This document shows positions 26,076 to 50,088 of a stretch of 63,105 nt of DNA, piece by piece. The stretch spans positions 1-63,105 of IMG/VR virus record IMGVR_UViG_3300036831_000039; one strand, 5' to 3'. The number at the start of each line of letters is the position of its first letter. Positions within the stretch are counted from its first letter, which is position 1. Position numbers and translations under genes: made by a program. A model generated the notes under the pieces. The model was not told the origin of the DNA, made no database searches, and saw only the letters and a program-made list of their open reading frames with translations. Origin of the DNA: a virus (lineage: Duplodnaviria; Caudoviricetes).

Positions 26076-26263
26076 CCCAGGCTAAAAGATAAATGTAAAT
26101 GTATGTGTAAAAACAGGTGATAAATTAGTATTACTATTACAGTATACATTACTCGGTCTATTATTTGATCTATAGGGTCAGTAGGCTTTCCAAGCTCTAT
26201 CCAACAAAAGAAGTATAGGACACTTATTATTATTAGTGGTATCAGGATTGGGATTATTGCCAT
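26066..26263 (-). CDS. Small membrane protein
   Basis: Two hydrophobic segments; TAATG overlap with pol. Confidence 0.5.
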   Translation of the reverse strand: MAIIPILIPLIIISVLYFFCWIELGKPTDPIDQIIDRVMYTVIVILIYHLFLHIHLHLSFSLGWK

Positions 26264-29073
26264 TATTTCAAATCTCCCCAAGTTTTAGCTATGTTGCCCT
26301 TAGCCCCCAAGGGTGCTAGTAAGTTTGCCGCATGGCTCATTTCGTACTCTACATGACATTGTAAAAGGGGTGCAATAGACTCTTCAGCCTCAAATATAAG
26401 TTCATCATGCACAGGTACTAATGGCTCACAGTATCCAAACTGTCTAACCTCCGGAATGGAATGGTCATAAACATTCTTCATCCCGACCTTTAGTATATCT
26501 CCAGCAGTACCTTGCACGGGCTGATTGCCAATCTGACGTAGAGCTTCTTCTCGGATACCGTCCAGCGGTGACCACACAGCCGGAAAGTAACGAATGCGTC
26601 CGAACATAGTACGTACCATTCCAGTTTGGCGGGCCTCCGCGTATACATCCGCCATGTAGCATTTAACTCCTGGATAGGCTTCAAACCACGCAGCAATGAA
26701 ATCCATAGCCTCTTGGCGAGTAATCTTAATGCCTAGTAGGGCTAGTTCATTCATGAGTCTTGTAGCCTGCATTCCGTAGAAAATTCCAAAATTGACTGTC
26801 TTAGCTGCTACACGCTGGTCAGAGGTAATTAGATCCATTGATAGCTTGTACACTAGCGCTGCGGTGGCTCGATGAATGTCCTTTCCACTACGGAAAATCT
26901 CAATCATGTTCTCATCCCTACTGAGATGAGCGCCCACCCGCAGTTCCACCTGATCTAGATCAACCGATACCAGTACGCAGCCCGGAGGGGCTATAAAGCC
27001 CTTACGAACGCGTTTGCCAAGTGGGGAGCGGGTAGGAATATTCTGAAGATTGATGTTCCTAGAGGCTAATCTGCCAGACGCAGTATTAGTGTATAAAAGT
27101 TGAGTATGGATTCGACAGTTCTTGTCTGCTAGTCGCTGAATTGGGAGTACGTAGGTTCCCAACATTTTGGCGTGTTCACGATAATCCAATATCACGTCAA
27201 TGATAGGAGCTACAGCAGCGTCGAACGCATACTTAATCTTTAATGACTCCATTGACTTAGCATCAGTGGAGGGTTTTTCAGTCTTCTTAGAGAACTTGGG
27301 AGGGTCTAGTTTAAGTCGTCCATATAGTAGTTCTGAGACTTGATCAGGAGAGCCTGCGTTAACATTGTAGCCTACTAGGGAAGATAGCCTATCCTGAATG
27401 ACTACTAGTTCGGTTTCTAGTTCTTTCTGGAATCCTGAAAAGTAGTCTAGATCCACCAACATTCCAACCGATTGCATTCGGTCTAGTATTGGTAAGATTC
27501 CTCGGTCTATGTCATACACACGCTCTAGCCCCTGCTCCTTCAGCATGGGCATTATAACGTTGAAATCTCTTAATGTAGCGTCTGCGTCTCGGCCAGCATA
27601 TTCAATAACAGCTTTCGTATCTTTAACGTCTCGGAGCGTAGTTCGTGGAAGTTTGCCAATAATATCTTCCACTGGACGGCGAATTTCTGGATCAATGTTA
27701 TACCAACGCTTGCGTAGCGGATGGCTGGCTTCATCCTCGTCAACGTCTTCTCCCTCTTCGTCATCCTCACTGCCGATAGAGGTTATCTCCTCCATCATCT
27801 TTTTGAGGCGTCTAGAAATCGACCAGGGACGCTTAAGCTTTCCTTCCTCATCATAGATGACTGGTGGTGCAGGCCAATTAGCCCCATCTACACATGCGGG
27901 ACACCTAACAGTCGACTTAAGAGGTACATCGGCCAATACAACACACGCACAATCGTCGGATGTCTTAAGAAGCTGGCCCTTTTTGCCACGCTTCCCGATC
28001 TTGCCAGTGCCACTACACGAAGAGCATTTATCATCAGCTAATTTACCTTTACGCTTTGCTAGGCCTGGAAGGTTACCTTTACCCTCACATATTCTACAGA
28101 CTTTCTGAATCCACGCCGTAGTAAGGTATTGATTAACTTTGCTAACCTCCGCAGAGTGGATAAGGGCCGGGTAGCTGCCCATTTCCATTTGATTGAGACG
28201 GTATGATAAAGGCTTTAGAGCTTTAGGAGTTAGCCCCAATAGGTAGGAGCCGATCATAGTATCATGTATATCGGCTTTGTAGGTAGATATTCCTAGCGCT
28301 CTAATGATGGGTAGATCGTGAAGCATATTGTGCCCCACGATCATTTTCCCATCAAATACTGATGAATAGGTGGTAGGCTCAGTAATTACTGAAGCTTTAC
28401 CCACTTGCTGAGTTACTTGTATGCTGTAGGGATCATCTACCCATCCCTCAGTATCTAGTGCTATCGGGAGGGTAGGGTCTAGGGTAAGTAGGGTTTGTGG
28501 GGATTCTTTAGTGTATAATGGGGTAGGATATTTGTCGGGAGGTACAGTGGACTCTATTTCGCCGCGTAGGAGCTTGCCTAATGACCTGAAATCATCCCAT
28601 ACAAGCTTTCCGTAACGATCTGGCTGACGGATACCGGCCGCTGGATGGTACACTGGTAGTATTTTACAGCCTAATTCCTTAGCTACTGGATCTATTGGGT
28701 CAAAAGGTAATCCATGAATATATTCCATCTTCACAGATTTACCAAGAAAAAACTGAGCGGCAATTTTACCAACAGCTACAATTATGTATGGGGAAGCTCT
28801 ATAAAGCTCCTCATAGAGTTCTGGGCGGTCGCGCTCTATCTCTTGATCGGTTGGATTGCGGTCATCTTCATCTGTGCGCCATTTGACAATGTTGGTGATG
28901 AAGACTTCGTTTCTATAAATACCCGCACAGCGGATAAGGTAATTGTTAAGTTCATAACCTGAAGCTCCAACGAAGGGTAATCCTTGATCGGCTTCGCTAG
29001 CTCCAGGCCCTTCTCCAACAATAGCAATTAGCGCCGGAGTAGGCCCATATCCTATTACCTTATTACCTATCAT
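26263..29073 (-). CDS. polA: Family A DNA polymerase with N-terminal family-4 UDG-like domain, 3'-5' exonuclease and Zn-finger insert
   Basis: GEGPG/PFVG/YHPAA (UDG); DTEG, HNMLHD, YAGRD (exo); TASGRLAS, NLQNIP, DLDQVELR, KTVNFGIFYG, VHDE (PolA). Confidence 0.95.
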   Translation of the reverse strand: MIGNKVIGYGPTPALIAIVGEGPGASEADQGLPFVGASGYELNNYLIRCAGIYRNEVFITNIVKWRTDEDDRNPTDQEIERDRPELYEELYRASPYIIVAVGKIAAQFFLGKSVKMEYIHGLPFDPIDPVAKELGCKILPVYHPAAGIRQPDRYGKLVWDDFRSLGKLLRGEIESTVPPDKYPTPLYTKESPQTLLTLDPTLPIALDTEGWVDDPYSIQVTQQVGKASVITEPTTYSSVFDGKMIVGHNMLHDLPIIRALGISTYKADIHDTMIGSYLLGLTPKALKPLSYRLNQMEMGSYPALIHSAEVSKVNQYLTTAWIQKVCRICEGKGNLPGLAKRKGKLADDKCSSCSGTGKIGKRGKKGQLLKTSDDCACVVLADVPLKSTVRCPACVDGANWPAPPVIYDEEGKLKRPWSISRRLKKMMEEITSIGSEDDEEGEDVDEDEASHPLRKRWYNIDPEIRRPVEDIIGKLPRTTLRDVKDTKAVIEYAGRDADATLRDFNVIMPMLKEQGLERVYDIDRGILPILDRMQSVGMLVDLDYFSGFQKELETELVVIQDRLSSLVGYNVNAGSPDQVSELLYGRLKLDPPKFSKKTEKPSTDAKSMESLKIKYAFDAAVAPIIDVILDYREHAKMLGTYVLPIQRLADKNCRIHTQLLYTNTASGRLASRNINLQNIPTRSPLGKRVRKGFIAPPGCVLVSVDLDQVELRVGAHLSRDENMIEIFRSGKDIHRATAALVYKLSMDLITSDQRVAAKTVNFGIFYGMQATRLMNELALLGIKITRQEAMDFIAAWFEAYPGVKCYMADVYAEARQTGMVRTMFGRIRYFPAVWSPLDGIREEALRQIGNQPVQGTAGDILKVGMKNVYDHSIPEVRQFGYCEPLVPVHDELIFEAEESIAPLLQCHVEYEMSHAANLLAPLGAKGNIAKTWGDLK

Positions 29074-42562: not shown

Positions 42563-42848
42563 AATGTCAGCCCCCCCCCCCCCTTGCGGGATTGAATGAA
42601 TATTAGGTTCAAATTTTTCTAGTTCAAGACAATGATTGCATAGGTTACTCATAATAATATTTATCACTTATCGAATTCAATGTATTCAACTCTAAGAGAC
42701 AATCTGCCCATATCCAAACTGTATCTACCCTTCCCTAGATTGTGAAGCCCCCACACAGCAGAATCCGCACTATACCATAGAATGGAAAAGCTTAGCATTG
42801 CGCTCATTTATTAGTCCTCCAAGTACTAGAGGGTTCACCAGAAGATTT

Positions 42849-42939
42849 TGGTGCAGGCGTCCGGACTCGGACCGGCTTCTAGGCGCTGATCTGGCGCGAC
42901 CGATTATAAGTCGGCTTGAGGACCTTCCTCCCCGCCTGC
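42849..42939 (-). tRNA. Non-canonical tRNA, anticodon UAU (Ile), with long variable arm
   Basis: GCAGGCG/CGCCTGC acceptor + ACCA; D arm GAGG-AAGGT-CCTC; anticodon arm GCCGA-CTTATAA-TCGGT; extra arm GCGC-CAGATCA-GCGC; T arm CCGG-TCCGAGT-CCGG. Confidence 0.8.
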
Positions 42940-42972: not shown

Positions 42973-43425
42973 CTAGAATGGGGCATTCCCTCTATTATTA
43001 TTACTTACCTTCATATATCCTGCCACTTTATTAAACTCTGGTGTAGGAATAATAGGATCTACTTTCGCTGGTTGATTGTACTTTTCTTCCATTGTAGCCA
43101 TCCACTTATTAAGCTCCCTGTGATCGACTGTCCACGCACAGAGGGTAATTTTATGCCCATCTACGTTTTTATAAACTGGATTAACTACAGAAGGGAGGGT
43201 AGTTACCTCTCCAAGATTATTGCTGGTAATATACTGGGTAAGAGCATTAGTGTGTTGAGAACCTTCTTTATCAGAGTAAAGGATTATGCCTCCCAGCACA
43301 GATTTGGTCCCGTACCTGTCCAGTGGATTTTTGCAGGCTTCATACAATGCCTTCTCAAGATTAAAGGTATAAATCCCTACAAGTTCTCCCACTCCGCAAG
43401 AAACTTTTGACCATGACAGATTCAT
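42973..43425 (-). CDS. Unknown-function paralogue D
   Basis: VSCGV.EL, ILYSD, LTQYI..NLGEV, NP..GHKI..AWTVD. Confidence 0.7.
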   Translation of the reverse strand: MNLSWSKVSCGVGELVGIYTFNLEKALYEACKNPLDRYGTKSVLGGIILYSDKEGSQHTNALTQYITSNNLGEVTTLPSVVNPVYKNVDGHKITLCAWTVDHRELNKWMATMEEKYNQPAKVDPIIPTPEFNKVAGYMKVSNNNRGNAPF

Positions 43426-43460: not shown

Positions 43461-43537
43461 TGGTGCCCTTGAGAGGAGTCGAGCCTCTAACCGAGAGATT
43501 AGAAATCTCTTACTCTATCCTATTGAGCTACAAGGGC
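43461..43537 (-). tRNA. tRNA-Arg(UCU)
   Basis: GCCCTTG/CAAGGGC acceptor + ACCA; AGAGA-TTTCTAA-TCTCT anticodon arm; AGAGG-CTCGACT-CCTCT T arm. Confidence 0.9.
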
Positions 43538-43769: not shown

Positions 43770-43996
43770 ACCAACTCCTTCCACCTAAGAATGTCTGCAA
43801 AATTTAGCGCTGATTTAGGGGATAGTTTCATAGGCCTAATCTCGTTATAGGTAATTGAGTTAGGACCGCTACGGGCATATTTTGCGTAAACTGTGGCTGC
43901 TTCCTCATCTACTACGATCGCATACTTCCCGAAAGGCCTATCCGAAGAGTAAGCTTGAAAGTAATGTCCGTTGGGGTCTATGAATATACGGGCCAT
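43766..43996 (-). CDS. Hypothetical protein
   Basis: ORF overlapping the end of the amidotransferase gene. Confidence 0.5.
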   Translation of the reverse strand: MARIFIDPNGHYFQAYSSDRPFGKYAIVVDEEAATVYAKYARSGPNSITYNEIRPMKLSPKSALNFADILRWKELV

Positions 43997-45510
43997 TCAA
44001 GCTCATCTCCTTCTGGAGGCCCTAGGCGATTCTCTTTGTCGGTTAGAAAGCCAATTGCGGCCTGTGTAGCTTCATCAGGATCTTGTGCGGTAGTAGTATT
44101 GAGGACCACTAACGATGTAGATTCCTCACCAGAATGTGCTTTGTTACCTTCTAGAGCTAGTACGAGTTCGGACTCTGGAATGCAATAACAACTACACTGA
44201 TTGCACCAAATATTGCTAGTAAGTTCTCCCTTAGTGTGGATGTCCGTGGAAAGGAAGTGGCCACAGTCTCGACACATTTTAACTGTTAACAACTTGCATG
44301 CTTCGTCTTGTTTTCCCTGGCACTGAACAAGGCTATTGAACAAGCACATGCCCCAAATGTGATACTTCAGCGGATCATTACACCTCGGGCAAATGGTAGT
44401 AAGTTCTACCTCTCCAAAAGTTTCGGAGTTGGAATCAGCATTTCGCAGCATGACACTCCGAAGCCGCTCAATCGGAACCAGATTATCCGGAACAGGATCA
44501 CTAGTAAGCTTTTCCCATTCAGCTTCCATTGCTTCAAAGTGTGCTGTAGTTGGAACTAGCTTACTCTTACGACGAAGAGCTTTCTTTTGGGCTTTAGAGA
44601 GCTTATGGATTCCGTCTGCAGAAGGGGTAGAGAAATTTCCATGAACTACATTGCTAGTAGTTCCTTTGATTGCATTCTGACGTTCAGTTCTGCGGCGCTC
44701 TAACCAACTTTTCTCTGTTTCACTAAGTCCTAGAGTGTTCCATTCATGAGTGTTACCAGAGGATCTAGAACTAGACCACGTAGACATACCACGGAAATTC
44801 TTACTAGCTTCTTTTTCCTCAAACACTTCCCCGTTTTCAATTTTGTACCATGTATCAGGATTGATAATGAGCGATCTCATATCCATACCGAGTAGGTTAG
44901 CCGCTTTGTCAAGCGCTCTCCATTCGGATGCCCAAACAACTAAATTCTGACGTTCTCCGTCAGCTTTAGGCTTGCTACGGTAGAAATTGGCTACCGAAAT
45001 ATTGCCGCCGTTAGTCTTAAAAAACCTAATAGACTTATAATCGTTTGATTTACTTGCGTAGAACACTACCCCATATCCGGATAGCTCCAGTAGTGGAAGA
45101 TCCTCGTTAATATGAGCAAAGAGGTGTTGAGAATCCACTTCAAACGTTCTCCCATACTTTTCATTCATTTCTTTATAGTTACCTACTGAGCCATTGTGCA
45201 CGCCGATAATATTTCCCACCTCAAACGGATGAGCATTAGGAATGCTAACTTCTCCTACTGTGGCAGCCCTGGTATGACCGAGAATCTTAGGATATACCGA
45301 TATTTCCCTAAGTACATGACTGCCCTTTTCAGAGATTTTGCCAAGCCCCTTAATTACATCAATTTTTCCGGTAGGATCAAATAATGCTACTCCGAAGGAA
45401 TCCTTACCTCGGCCTTCCATTTCAGAAGCAAGGGTTACTCCTAGGATGCCTGCTTCGTATTCGGTAAGGTTATTATCGTCTGTACACTGAAACCCGAAAA
45501 TTCCACACAT
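43978..45510 (-). CDS. Class II (Ntn) glutamine amidotransferase with Cys-rich C-terminal extension
   Basis: MCGIFG, RG.DSFG, GHTRAAT.G..NAHPF, HNG, VDS. Confidence 0.92.
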   Translation of the reverse strand: MCGIFGFQCTDDNNLTEYEAGILGVTLASEMEGRGKDSFGVALFDPTGKIDVIKGLGKISEKGSHVLREISVYPKILGHTRAATVGEVSIPNAHPFEVGNIIGVHNGSVGNYKEMNEKYGRTFEVDSQHLFAHINEDLPLLELSGYGVVFYASKSNDYKSIRFFKTNGGNISVANFYRSKPKADGERQNLVVWASEWRALDKAANLLGMDMRSLIINPDTWYKIENGEVFEEKEASKNFRGMSTWSSSRSSGNTHEWNTLGLSETEKSWLERRRTERQNAIKGTTSNVVHGNFSTPSADGIHKLSKAQKKALRRKSKLVPTTAHFEAMEAEWEKLTSDPVPDNLVPIERLRSVMLRNADSNSETFGEVELTTICPRCNDPLKYHIWGMCLFNSLVQCQGKQDEACKLLTVKMCRDCGHFLSTDIHTKGELTSNIWCNQCSCYCIPESELVLALEGNKAHSGEESTSLVVLNTTTAQDPDEATQAAIGFLTDKENRLGPPEGDELEWPVYS

Positions 45511-46968
45511 TTAAATTGTCTCCAAATAAAGATTTTCAGTAATTAATGCTTGAGGTTGAATTTTATTTCGATAGTTACTCATTAAAGTAGCTGGAAGGAT
45601 CTTATCTCCAAAGGATGCATTGGATCGAATGTAATCTGATAATTCCAGCTTATTGCGAAAGTAGTCTATTGATTGTTTAGATACCAATTGACCCATTAGA
45701 AATAAGCCGGAGGTAATATTCTCTTTGCCCTGTGTTTCTTTCGCTTCGGATTTGTTTAATAGATCCTGTAGCTTTGAGTAGCTAATAGATTTAATGCTAT
45801 CGAATAGCTCTAGTAGGAGCTTAACCCATCCATAAATCTCGTTGAAATCTACCGCACCATGATGGAGCCGAAATTCTACAGTGCCTCTAAGAAAGTATGT
45901 GTGGAGATTTACTGCCGAATAGCGGACTTCATTGCGATTTCCACGGATACGCCCATAATGATCTCGCTTGGAACGTAAATATTCATTAGGGTTTCCAAGT
46001 GCTGCATCTCCGTATACTTTCTTGATAATGGCAGGTTTAAGAGACTTAGTATCAGGCTTAATACCTTTTAGAATACCCTCGCTAAGATATTCGCCACACG
46101 GCCTACAGAACGCACTATTGATCCTGGATGAGTGTACTGAGCCAAACAGAACAGGTTCTAGCCGGCTATACACAGCTACAAACCGTTGTATTTCTTGATA
46201 ACCTAAATCTCTACAATCAATATGGACATGTAGGCCACATGAAGTATTGACTTTGGCGTCAGCAGCGATTAACCCGTCGCAGATATCCTTGAGTTCATTA
46301 TATAACGCATCTCCGCAAGCGGGCGTGGTGTTGATTTCAAATGATCTATTGGTGTTACTTACAATAGATCCGTCATGTACCACGCTACAGCCCCATTTAG
46401 ATAATGCTGCATTCAGTTCTTTAGCATTACCATACTCGCTTACCTCAATTTCCACTGCTGCAAATCGTTTTGAGGAATTGTGGATAAATCCCTTCGGACT
46501 TAGGCAAGTTCTCTGCATACCGTTGGATATAAGTAGAGATGAAGTGGCGTCCGTAAATGATGGATCTGGAAAAGTCTTTACTTCCGGATAAGCAAAGTTT
46601 ACTTCGCCAATCCTATCAGCTTCTCTCCACTGGATGGGCTTCCAGCAACAAGAGTGGAAGTAAGTCTTACAACAATTTTTGCACCGGGTACTATTACTTC
46701 CACCTTGTGGACAGCATCCGCAGATATAGTCTTTTATTGGAAATGTATTACCACAACTAGAGCAATATTTATGTTCTTGTTCTTTATCCTTAGGAGATGT
46801 TCCGAGAGTACGATTAGGATAAAGTTTCTTACAGCATCGCACACAACTAGCTATCTCAGGGTTAGCACCACGGGCTGGCTTACAGCAAGTGTTATTGCTA
46901 TTGCTGCAACGACGTGTGTAATTACTATTAAACTCATTACCGCAAATATAACATCTAGTAGGTTTCAT
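45511..46968 (-). CDS. Putative amidoligase (glutamine-synthetase-like COOH-NH2 ligase) with Cys-rich N-terminus
   Basis: AVEIE, DGSI, FEINT, NTSCGLHVHI, RYSAVNL, TVEFRLHHG. Confidence 0.88.
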   Translation of the reverse strand: MKPTRCYICGNEFNSNYTRRCSNSNNTCCKPARGANPEIASCVRCCKKLYPNRTLGTSPKDKEQEHKYCSSCGNTFPIKDYICGCCPQGGSNSTRCKNCCKTYFHSCCWKPIQWREADRIGEVNFAYPEVKTFPDPSFTDATSSLLISNGMQRTCLSPKGFIHNSSKRFAAVEIEVSEYGNAKELNAALSKWGCSVVHDGSIVSNTNRSFEINTTPACGDALYNELKDICDGLIAADAKVNTSCGLHVHIDCRDLGYQEIQRFVAVYSRLEPVLFGSVHSSRINSAFCRPCGEYLSEGILKGIKPDTKSLKPAIIKKVYGDAALGNPNEYLRSKRDHYGRIRGNRNEVRYSAVNLHTYFLRGTVEFRLHHGAVDFNEIYGWVKLLLELFDSIKSISYSKLQDLLNKSEAKETQGKENITSGLFLMGQLVSKQSIDYFRNKLELSDYIRSNASFGDKILPATLMSNYRNKIQPQALITENLYLETI

Positions 46969-48930: not shown

Positions 48931-50088
48931 CTACATACCTCCACAGCTAGGATTGTTACATCCTGGCACTTTACACACACCGCTAAGAATGCTCTCTGCA
49001 TGCCTACGAAACCCTTTACCGTCAATTCCAGCCTCTTTCCATTCTTCAGGAGTAAGTGGTTCAGCAGGATTTGAAGTTAAATGTGATAGAAAGGAAATTG
49101 ACTTGTGGTTAAATGGTATATGACTCAAAACCCATTCAGCAGTGCTATTATTCATGTTATTAATGGCAAATCTCGCCTTATCAGAGAGTTGTTCGGGAGG
49201 AGTTCCGTAGTTGATAGCAAAGTACAGTGCTGTACGGTATAGATTAAACATAAGACTAACGTATACCGGATTGCTGAGGACTGAGCCAGGAAGTACCCTA
49301 TACTCGACTCCGTGTGTATGGTGGCGATAATCCCTTTTTTCTAGGGCAGTTGCGCCCACAGTAATTGTCGGAACTGGATATTCTCGGTATCTGAACTCTC
49401 CCGCACGGCCATAGGCTTTCCGCCTTAAAATCTCCATCTTAGGCTCATCGGGAGATACCAGTACCCAGGTACAGCCTACCAGAATGTCTGCCCAACGGAC
49501 CAAATCATAGGCTACTTTATCAGTCTTGAGCGATGGATGGGTGAGGTGTAGGTGACCACCAGTTGTCCGCATCCGTTCCGATAGATAAGACGGATCACCA
49601 CAATCATCATAAATATTCAGACTTGGAGAGCAGCCCAGCCGCTTAACATCGTCCGGGGCAGCTTCTTGATCTTTTTTAGGGATGGAATACACAGCAGGCA
49701 TTTCAATAGTAAGCTTAGAGCTACCCACTAGTGATTTAGCGGTAGACAGTGCCACTCCTAGTCTATTCATAATTACATCTAGGCAATAGTGAGGCGGGAT
49801 GCACAACTCCATAGCGTATCCATCACCGTGGAAATCGCTTCTAATCGAGGAGTGTAATTCAGTGGGAAAGCTAACTTTAGGATTATATGGCTCACGTTCC
49901 TGGGGGAAACCTACCTCATGTGGCCAAATGGTTTTGAGCCTATGAGATTTTGGATCACGATGCTTGAAAAGCATTTCCGTATCCATTCCTAGAAGTACCA
50001 AACTATCTGAAACTGTCTGGTTTTGTGAAGAGAAAATGTTAAGGGCAAACTCATCATCAAACGGCATTTTAATCTTATCTTCTGTCAT
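48931..50088 (-). CDS. phiEco32-like COOH-NH2 ligase type 2
   Basis: LGMDTE, DG.A.EL, LGCSP, RTTGGHLH, RR.AYG.AGEFR, GVEYRVL. Confidence 0.88.
   Translation of the reverse strand: MTEDKIKMPFDDEFALNIFSSQNQTVSDSLVLLGMDTEMLFKHRDPKSHRLKTIWPHEVGFPQEREPYNPKVSFPTELHSSIRSDFHGDGYAMELCIPPHYCLDVIMNRLGVALSTAKSLVGSSKLTIEMPAVYSIPKKDQEAAPDDVKRLGCSPSLNIYDDCGDPSYLSERMRTTGGHLHLTHPSLKTDKVAYDLVRWADILVGCTWVLVSPDEPKMEILRRKAYGRAGEFRYREYPVPTITVGATALEKRDYRHHTHGVEYRVLPGSVLSNPVYVSLMFNLYRTALYFAINYGTPPEQLSDKARFAINNMNNSTAEWVLSHIPFNHKSISFLSHLTSNPAEPLTPEEWKEAGIDGKGFRRHAESILSGVCKVPGCNNPSCGGM

Follow-up and report, generated by a model that had tools for sequence, protein, structure and literature searches.

A soil phage record of 63,105 bases (IMG/VR record IMGVR_UViG_3300036831_000039, estimated to be 97% complete; the whole of it is called the window here) contains a gene that is very probably a working, AUA-reading transfer RNA (tRNA) with two isoleucine anticodons, UAU in the anticodon arm and GAU at the centre of an extra arm. 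It belongs to a family of genes of the same build, which we call the GAU-arm family. On the explanation that we favour, which we regard as an evenly balanced possibility, the UAU arm would decode AUA and the GAU arm would serve as a recognition handle for the isoleucyl-tRNA synthetase (IleRS) of the host.

Read directly from the sequence, the gene is 91 nucleotides (nt) long and runs 5′ to 3′ on the minus strand from 42939 to 42849 (Table 1). It has the general features of a tRNA: an acceptor stem of 7 base pairs (bp), a discriminator base, CCA, a 5-bp anticodon stem and a 7-nt anticodon loop, C-U-UAU-A-A, in which U33 and a purine at position 37 (A37) occupy their canonical places. The T loop has U54, C56, A58 and the G53-C61 pair; position 55 is C and not the usual U. 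All elements listed in a preliminary description of this DNA (91 nt, CCA, both loops, G8, a 5-nt D loop, a 2-nt spacer, a UCCGAGU T loop and a G:A mismatch) were found again on direct reading; that description did not mention the strand.

ARAGORN, run on the window, called only a tRNA-Arg and not the gene at 42849..42939, and the Rfam tRNA model (RF00005) gave no match to the gene at E ≤ 10. The gene is a 64% G+C island between flanks of 26-50% G+C. As a single sequence it folds with a minimum free energy of -37.2 kcal/mol (z -1.69), and 14 of 200 shuffles folded equally well, which is not significant on its own. Because both tools are silent and the single-sequence fold is not significant, the case for the gene rests on its relatives, of which L003, L004 and L180 share its build and do receive ARAGORN calls. 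We built a covariance model, R1, from an alignment of 30 diverse relatives (A3) from which the window copy had been left out. R1 found the gene at 42852-42939(-) with 54.5 bits (E 2.4e-11); the match spans all 89 positions of the model (1-89) and includes the extra arm. The ordinary tRNA-Arg of the window scored 39.2 bits, with the extra-arm columns deleted. Scores of other members ranged from 49.5 to 85.5 bits and those of ordinary tRNAs reached at most 48.2 bits; one relative with a GAU arm, L408, scored 46.7 bits and so falls within the range of ordinary tRNAs.

Relatives were found by several routes. An alignment of homologues of the neighbouring amidotransferase led to 12 viral loci, and a query with the single protein led to one weak locus. 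Two of the loci, L003 and L004, are syntenic relatives of the phage, with amidoligase, amidotransferase, helicase and other proteins at 25-54% identity. In each of them ARAGORN calls a tRNA-Ile(tat) of 93 nt whose anticodon lies at position 32, and in L004 this gene adjoins a tRNA-Arg(tct), the same pair as in the window. Both genes are built like the window gene; their extra-arm stems are ACGC/GCGU and GCUC/GAGC, and the loops read CAGAUUA and UAGAUUG. A blastn search of 50,697 phage records with the 91 nt and with two relatives as queries gave no match, an exact 33-nt scan of viral contigs gave none either, and a scan for a near-identical extra arm found L075 only.

A first family pattern with fixed AUAA and AGAUU was replaced, since 6 of its 12 loci (L015, L016, L017, L020, L021 and L023) were AT-rich chance matches; as it fixed both loops, it was also no test of conservation. 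We therefore relied on scans that leave one of the two loops free, and the counts given for them are among the matches listed. Scan A left the extra arm free, fixed an anticodon loop (CTTATAA) and a T loop (GGTTCRANTCC) with 27-35 nt between them, and gave at least 120 matches; scan B was the same with GGTCC for the C55 variant and gave 46 stretches. Together they yielded at least 93 distinct sequences with 7/7 acceptor pairs, and 80 of the 93 have a 7-nt loop centred on GAU and closed by at least 3 pairs. The honest figure for conservation is this 80/93 and not 80/80, because membership itself required GAU. In the converse scan C, CAGATTA, a spacing of 11-14 nt and the T loop were fixed and the anticodon was free. 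It returned at least 105 distinct sequences, 100 of them with 7/7 acceptor pairs, and 97 of these 100 have the anticodon UAU (95 parsed automatically, L195 and L221 by eye). The remaining three are Leu-type or odd, and in them CAGATTA does not lie in a closed hairpin loop. Position 37 of the anticodon loop is A in 94 of the 97 and G in 3, and position 38 varies. The agreement of the two kinds of scan links the GAU arm and the UAU anticodon both ways, and the GAU loop is strongly conserved. Of the outcomes that the preliminary description named as refuting it, a loop without conservation is the one that sequence analysis addresses, and here the result went in its favour.

Across the 80 members the extra-arm stem is most often 4 bp long (50 members), otherwise 5 bp (23) or 3 bp (7). 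The linker on its 5′ side is 1-5 nt, mostly 2, and that on its 3′ side is 5 nt (53), 6 nt (26) or 4 nt (1). Around the central triplet, loop position 1 is C (60) or U (20), position 2 is A (72), U (5) or C (3), position 6 is U (54), A (12), G (7) or C (7), and position 7 is A (57), G (18) or U (5). The discriminator is A73 in all 80. Position 55 is C in 9, and the D arm is reduced in 39, where the anticodon loop begins after only 28 nt.

The 13 sequences of the 93 that lack the GAU-centred loop are of several kinds. Five have no D arm (L033, L037, L050, L090 and L142); two are class II-bodied (L163 and L179); the rest are L035 (GAC), L095 (AAC), L103 (AGC), L131 (AAG), L123 (poor stems) and L140 (imperfect stem). 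The D-armless group consists of tRNA-like genes of 86-89 nt, with UAU, a 7/7 acceptor stem and a normal T arm, which have about 10 nt between the acceptor and anticodon stems and carry a long G-rich region after the anticodon arm. The class II-bodied UAU tRNAs (L163, L179, L279, L313, L330 and others) have a Leu/Ser-like D arm and a long GC-rich arm without GAU. Several of them lie in bacterial metagenome-assembled genomes (MAGs) and have G73, like serine-type tRNAs or allo-tRNAs.

The extra arm is, to judge by conservation and covariation, under selection. Alignment A3 was made with MAFFT, blind to structure; the pair counts come from it and not from a MAFFT alignment of 46 members (A2), which had shifted the short-D-arm group by 2 columns. 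When the five-helix structure was laid on A3, 89.0% of cells were paired, against 54.4% in shuffles, and the covariation score was 0.836, against 0.188 for shuffled alignments (0/500 as high) and 0.115-0.224 when the partners were slid by 1-3 columns. For the extra-arm helix alone, 94.2% of cells were paired, with changes on both sides in 4/4 pairs; the stem variants include GCGC, ACGC/GCGU, GCUC/GAGC, GCCC/GGGC and others. A metagenome scan anchored on the spacer and anticodon arm only gave 43 distinct stretches, of which 20 are distinct family members (42 loci) that reach E 1e-7 with R1. All 20 have GAU at the loop centre (AGAU in 19 and UGAU in 1).

The unusual features of the window copy recur in other members. 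Its nearest relative, L465, agrees with it in the D arm and in the T stem, GCCGG...CCGGA including the G.A pair, and the acceptor stem of L465 differs by a compensatory change, A3-U70 to U3-A70. The D-arm type of the window copy recurs in L180, L465, L411, L417 and L450, together with G8 in L180 and others; besides the D arm, L180 has the CUAGAA linker and C55 in common with the window copy. Since these odd features are common to L465, L180 and other members, they are lineage traits and not signs of decay.

The family, found mostly in phages, is common in viral contigs; its members lie both within large tRNA arrays of phages and in small phages. Among prokaryote assemblies, taken as one genome per species, the scan A pattern gave 119 distinct matches; a 7/7 acceptor stem is present in only 19 of these, and 9 of the 19 belong to the family, several from MAGs of Acidobacteriota. 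A soil/peat subgroup (L394, L396, L398, L423, L439, L441 and others, with at least 25 metagenome loci) has the T loop AUCGACA (A54) and a 5-bp D stem with a tetraloop. In three viral contigs ARAGORN calls a transfer-messenger RNA beside the arm-bearing tRNA-Ile(UAU), at L024:636-993, L185:5001-5400(-) and L190:11520-11873(-).

There are indirect signs of isoleucine identity, of which A73 in all 80 listed members is one. In six phage arrays an arm-bearing UAU tRNA occurs together with a class I tRNA-Ile(GAU), and in three of the six the acceptor stem of the latter is the closest in the array to that of the former (L157, 13/14; L158, 12/14; L175, 14/14). The two genes of L175 are plain paralogues, and the extra arm of the one, UCGG-CAGAUAA-CCGA, resembles the anticodon arm of the other, CAUGG-CUGAUAA-CCGUG. 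When R1 was applied to the class I tRNA-Ile(GAU) of L451, the UAU arm of the model was skipped, so that the anticodon arm of this tRNA fell on the extra arm and its variable loop on the linker. Position 37 of tRNA-Ile is normally A, modified to N6-threonylcarbamoyladenosine (t6A). Among class I phage tRNA-Ile(GAU) genes, 3 of 8 have U37, with loops CUGAUUA or CCGAUUA, and a U37-type loop is the commonest form of the extra-arm loop. These three genes lie at L157:3395-3468, L158:1259-1332(-) and L451:2110-2181(-), and one of them also has C33.

IleRS of E. coli uses the anticodon, and UAU lowers its kcat/Km 360-fold relative to the lysidine anticodon; the IleRS of Mycoplasma mobile needed an Arg to accept UAU (PMC3575796, excerpt). 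In an ordinary host a phage decoder with UAU therefore faces a charging barrier, which a GAU handle could solve. In the mechanism that we propose, the anticodon-binding domain of the host IleRS would dock on the GAU hairpin with the acceptor end in the active site, so that the hairpin would present in cis the anticodon that the enzyme normally reads; this is the simplest account of a centred GAU that is found only with UAU among the matches listed. During translation the UAU loop, with U33 and A37, would read AUA, and on the ribosome the GAU hairpin would be tolerated like the long arm of a tRNA for Leu, Ser or Tyr. The result would be AUA decoding without lysidine (TilS) and without a specially adapted IleRS. 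Two geometries can be imagined. The GAU arm might take the position of the anticodon arm by alternative stacking on the D stem, or it might swing alongside the anticodon arm as a flexible element. The variable loop of class I tRNAs is 4-5 nt, roughly the length of the 5-6 nt linker that follows the GAU arm. By eye, no complementarity was seen through which the GAU loop might pair with the anticodon loop, the D loop or the T loop of its own tRNA. The idea that the two arms are duplicates of each other was dropped, as their stems are dissimilar in the members inspected. Tentatively, and with somewhat less confidence than a coin toss would carry, we suggest that the design separates two readings, with the GAU arm addressing the synthetase and thus the amino acid and the UAU arm addressing the ribosome and thus the codon, which would allow AUA decoding in any host.

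Several observations weigh against such a handle. The position-33 equivalent of the GAU loop is A and not U in 72/80 listed members, and the position-37 equivalent is U in 54/80. Modified t6A37 is a strong determinant for bacterial-type IleRS (PMC9976931), and the GAU loop mostly cannot carry it because of that U; the objection is softened by the U37 of 3/8 class I phage tRNA-Ile(GAU). The varying length of the arm stem (3, 4 or 5 bp) favours a flexible tether over a rigid arm swap, and the long arm of class II tRNAs of solved structure is directed away from the anticodon. In the other three of the six arrays the acceptor stem of tRNA-Ile(GAU) is not the closest one, ranking 2nd in L155 (7/14), 11th in L075 and 7th-8th in L180. 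Four intact-looking members (L035, L400, L413 and L418) have GAC, a valine anticodon, in place of GAU, with GGAC for AGAU; these copies may be either decayed or, should the handle idea be right, natural valine-type handles. The 80 members are a set defined by GAU among the matches listed, and only 80/93 speaks to conservation. A promoter and terminator scan gave promoter-like sites of only 9-of-12 and no terminator and was uninformative. A look for sequencing runs that contain the window listed a single one, of soil-metagenome DNA, which may be its source, and none of RNA.

The nearest known counterparts each share part of the build. The GAU-arm tRNAs resemble the class II tRNAs (Leu, Ser and Tyr) in that a fifth helix separates the anticodon and T arms; unlike them, they have a 7-nt GAU loop and a 3′ linker of 5-6 nt. 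Among 24 tRNAs for Leu, Ser or Tyr from the same phage arrays, a hairpin could be parsed in 21. Its loop measures 3-6 nt, commonly as a GAAA-type tetraloop, the linker on its 3′ side is 0-4 nt long, and no loop triplet is common to the 21. The window gene does not belong to class II by its 7-nt loop, its 6-nt 3′ linker, its UAU anticodon or its A73. The ribosome accepts the long-arm shapes of class II tRNAs. Allo-tRNA(UAU) (Mukai et al., PMC5389517, excerpt) likewise combines a long extra arm with UAU and comes from metagenomes, but allo-tRNAs are serine-type: their acceptor and T stems divide 8/4 or 9/3, position 73 is G or U, and the D arm resembles that of tRNA-Sec, its long stem closing a tetraloop. 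The window gene is not one of them: it has a 7/5 split, its G8 faces A so that there is no 8th pair, it has A73, and its D arm is a 4-bp stem with a 5-nt loop. A 6-bp, tRNA-Sec-like D stem was considered for it and rejected. The class I tRNA-Ile2(UAU) of M. mobile also reads AUA with an unmodified-type UAU and without lysidine, yet it has the ordinary class I shape and depends on a changed IleRS (Arg865), whereas the phage family has the GAU hairpin (PMC3575796, excerpt). The nematode nev-tRNA-Ile(UAU) shares the V-arm and the UAU anticodon; it is eukaryotic, derived from tRNA-Leu and charged with leucine only, and the excerpted text mentions no GAU loop (PMC3333845).

One annotated gene proved to be a family member. 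The tRNA-Ile of Pectobacterium phage PhiM1 (JX290549, 25840-25937; 61.5 bits with R1) has the anticodon loop CUUAUAA, the extra arm ACAC-CAGAUAA-GUGU and A73; it differs from the window gene in its length of 98 nt, a longer 5′ linker and an ordinary T loop. The sequence record and the genome paper of this cultured phage speak only of "a single tRNA-Ile" and, for the paper in the excerpted text, do not remark on the shape (PMC5377504). In the full-text literature we found no description of a GAU-bearing extra arm on tRNA-Ile(UAU); supplements and subscription journals lie outside that scope, and the supplementary tables of the allo-tRNA and M. mobile papers may list related genes.

Among other explanations, the gene may be a functional, AUA-reading tRNA-Ile whose extra arm is no handle for IleRS, charging being achieved through A35, U36, A37, A73 and the tRNA body. 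We consider this unlikely but a serious contender. The arm could then be a determinant or antideterminant for an enzyme that modifies U34 or another base and keeps UAU off AUG, a processing signal, a stabiliser of the fold in tRNAs with small D arms, or a shield or bait against a tRNA nuclease of the host. It would accord with a GAU loop that lacks U33 and mostly lacks a purine at 37, with the existence of GAC variants and with the reduced D arms of 39/80 listed members, and armless class I phage tRNA-Ile(UAU) genes do exist, for example L427. UAU also misreads AUG on E. coli ribosomes, which makes an extra control plausible (PMC3575796, excerpt). What this explanation leaves unaccounted for is why a centred, conserved triplet should equal the major isoleucine anticodon, and should occur only with UAU among the matches listed. 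Apart from IleRS and enzymes acting on tRNA-Ile, no enzyme is known to us to recognise a GAU loop. It is also conceivable, though very improbable, that either arm enters the A site, UAU to read AUA and GAU to read AUC and AUU; of all the explanations weighed here we give this one the least credence. A few members do have a fully canonical second loop, CUGAUAA (L086) or CUGAUUA (L056 and L124), and the linker after the arm is about as long as a class I variable loop. The A at the position-33 equivalent in 72/80 listed members is, however, incompatible with a U-turn, the stems are just 3-5 bp, and many arrays have a separate tRNA-Ile(GAU).

A missense tRNA, in which the long arm and A73 make a substrate for leucyl-tRNA synthetase (or for the valyl or seryl enzyme) and AUA is read as another amino acid, is improbable. 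There are precedents: nev-tRNA-Ile(UAU) is leucylated (PMC3333845, excerpt), UAU allo-tRNAs exist (PMC5389517, excerpt), A73 is also the discriminator of Leu and Val (PMC9976931), and class II-bodied UAU tRNAs occur in phage contigs (L163 and L179). The arm is nevertheless unlike the Leu, Ser and Tyr arms of the same phages, the D arms are class I-like or minimal and not Leu-like, and the acceptor stem matches that of the co-resident tRNA-Ile(GAU) in 3/6 arrays. Wholesale missense reading would also be costly to this phage, since 272 of its 17,465 counted codons are ATA. The Ser-typical G73 is found in 0/80 listed members; as A73 is present in all 80 while the tRNA-Ser genes of the same arrays have G or U as discriminator (in the three cleanly parsed, the other two being mis-registered), the serine-charged mistranslator raised in the preliminary description is disfavoured. 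There is, lastly, only a slim chance that the window copy is a decaying or non-functional relative of the family. The silence of ARAGORN and Rfam would fit, as would G8, C55, the G.A pair at the base of the T stem and the look for RNA runs that listed none. The remaining stems are intact, though, and CCA is encoded; the G.A pair is shared with L465, next to a compensatory change in the acceptor stem; C55 occurs in 9 other members and G8 with the same D arm in L180 and others; and ATA is often used by the phage.

The codon usage of the phage fits a need for such a tRNA. In 66 non-overlapping open reading frames (17,465 codons), ATA makes up 272 of 1104 Ile codons (24.6%), and AGA 237 of 864 Arg codons, so that both phage tRNAs match often-used codons; that ATA is common here had been pointed out from the start and is confirmed by the count. 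The GAU-arm gene lies about 520 nt downstream of the tRNA-Arg(UCU) on the same strand and is flanked by co-oriented open reading frames at 42973-43425 and 42664-42807. Neither a TilS-type domain (PF01171) nor a class Ia synthetase domain (PF00133) was found among the phage proteins. The phage encodes an SU10-type adaptor and a helicase, and an amidoligase and a glutamine amidotransferase lie just upstream of the tRNAs; a match to the phiEco32-like COOH-NH2 ligase family is weak and below the Pfam cut-off. This module, at 43978-46968(-) and 48931-50088(-), comprises the glutamine amidotransferase, which has a Cys-rich C-terminal half, the amidoligase, an Amidoligase_2 protein, and, further upstream, the weak phiEco32-type match; the tRNAs lie just downstream, and the module is syntenic in L003 and L004. 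Elsewhere in the window, 26263-29073(-) encodes a 936-aa protein in which an N-terminal domain of the uracil-DNA-glycosylase superfamily is fused to a family A DNA polymerase.

Table 1. The putative GAU-arm tRNA and its companion tRNA in the window; sequences are given 5′ to 3′ on the minus strand.
Feature	Position	Strand	Description
Whole tRNA gene	42849..42939	(-)	91 nt with encoded CCA (42851-42849); discriminator A at 42852
Acceptor stem, 5′ strand GCAGGCG	42933..42939	(-)	7/7 Watson-Crick with CGCCUGC, 42853-42859
G8 G9	42932-42931	(-)	between acceptor stem and D arm
Short D arm GAGG-AAGGU-CCUC	42918..42930	(-)	4-bp stem, 5-nt loop
Spacer AA	42917-42916	(-)	2 nt, between D arm and anticodon arm
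Anticodon arm GCCGA-CUUAUAA-UCGGU	42899..42915	(-)	UAU at 42908-42906; one G.U in stem
Linker C	42898	(-)	1 nt, joins anticodon stem to extra arm
Extra arm GCGC-CAGAUCA-GCGC	42883..42897	(-)	4-bp stem; GAU at 42891-42889, loop positions 3-5 of 7
Linker CUAGAA	42877..42882	(-)	6 nt, single-stranded, between extra arm and T arm
T arm GCCGG-UCCGAGU-CCGGA	42860..42876	(-)	G.A at stem base; C at position 55
Companion tRNA-Arg(UCU)	43461-43537	(-)	ordinary class I; ARAGORN; Rfam RF00005 65.5 bits

In bacteria AUA is the one sense codon whose reading depends on a special trick, either lysidine or an IleRS altered so as to take UAU. Some members of the GAU-arm family, the window gene included, are missed or mislabelled by standard finders, so that phage tRNA inventories undercount the family. 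If the GAU arm is indeed a handle for IleRS, a widespread phage tRNA that bears the ordinary isoleucine anticodon on a side arm would add a third, portable way of reading AUA, and the rare relatives with a GAC handle would be natural reassignments of AUA to valine. We know of no earlier natural case in which the anticodon determinant of a synthetase lies outside the decoding anticodon. The family would be the first, and would offer a template for engineered tRNAs whose identity and codon are set independently; for the phages themselves it would bear on how they escape host codon bias and defences that target tRNAs.

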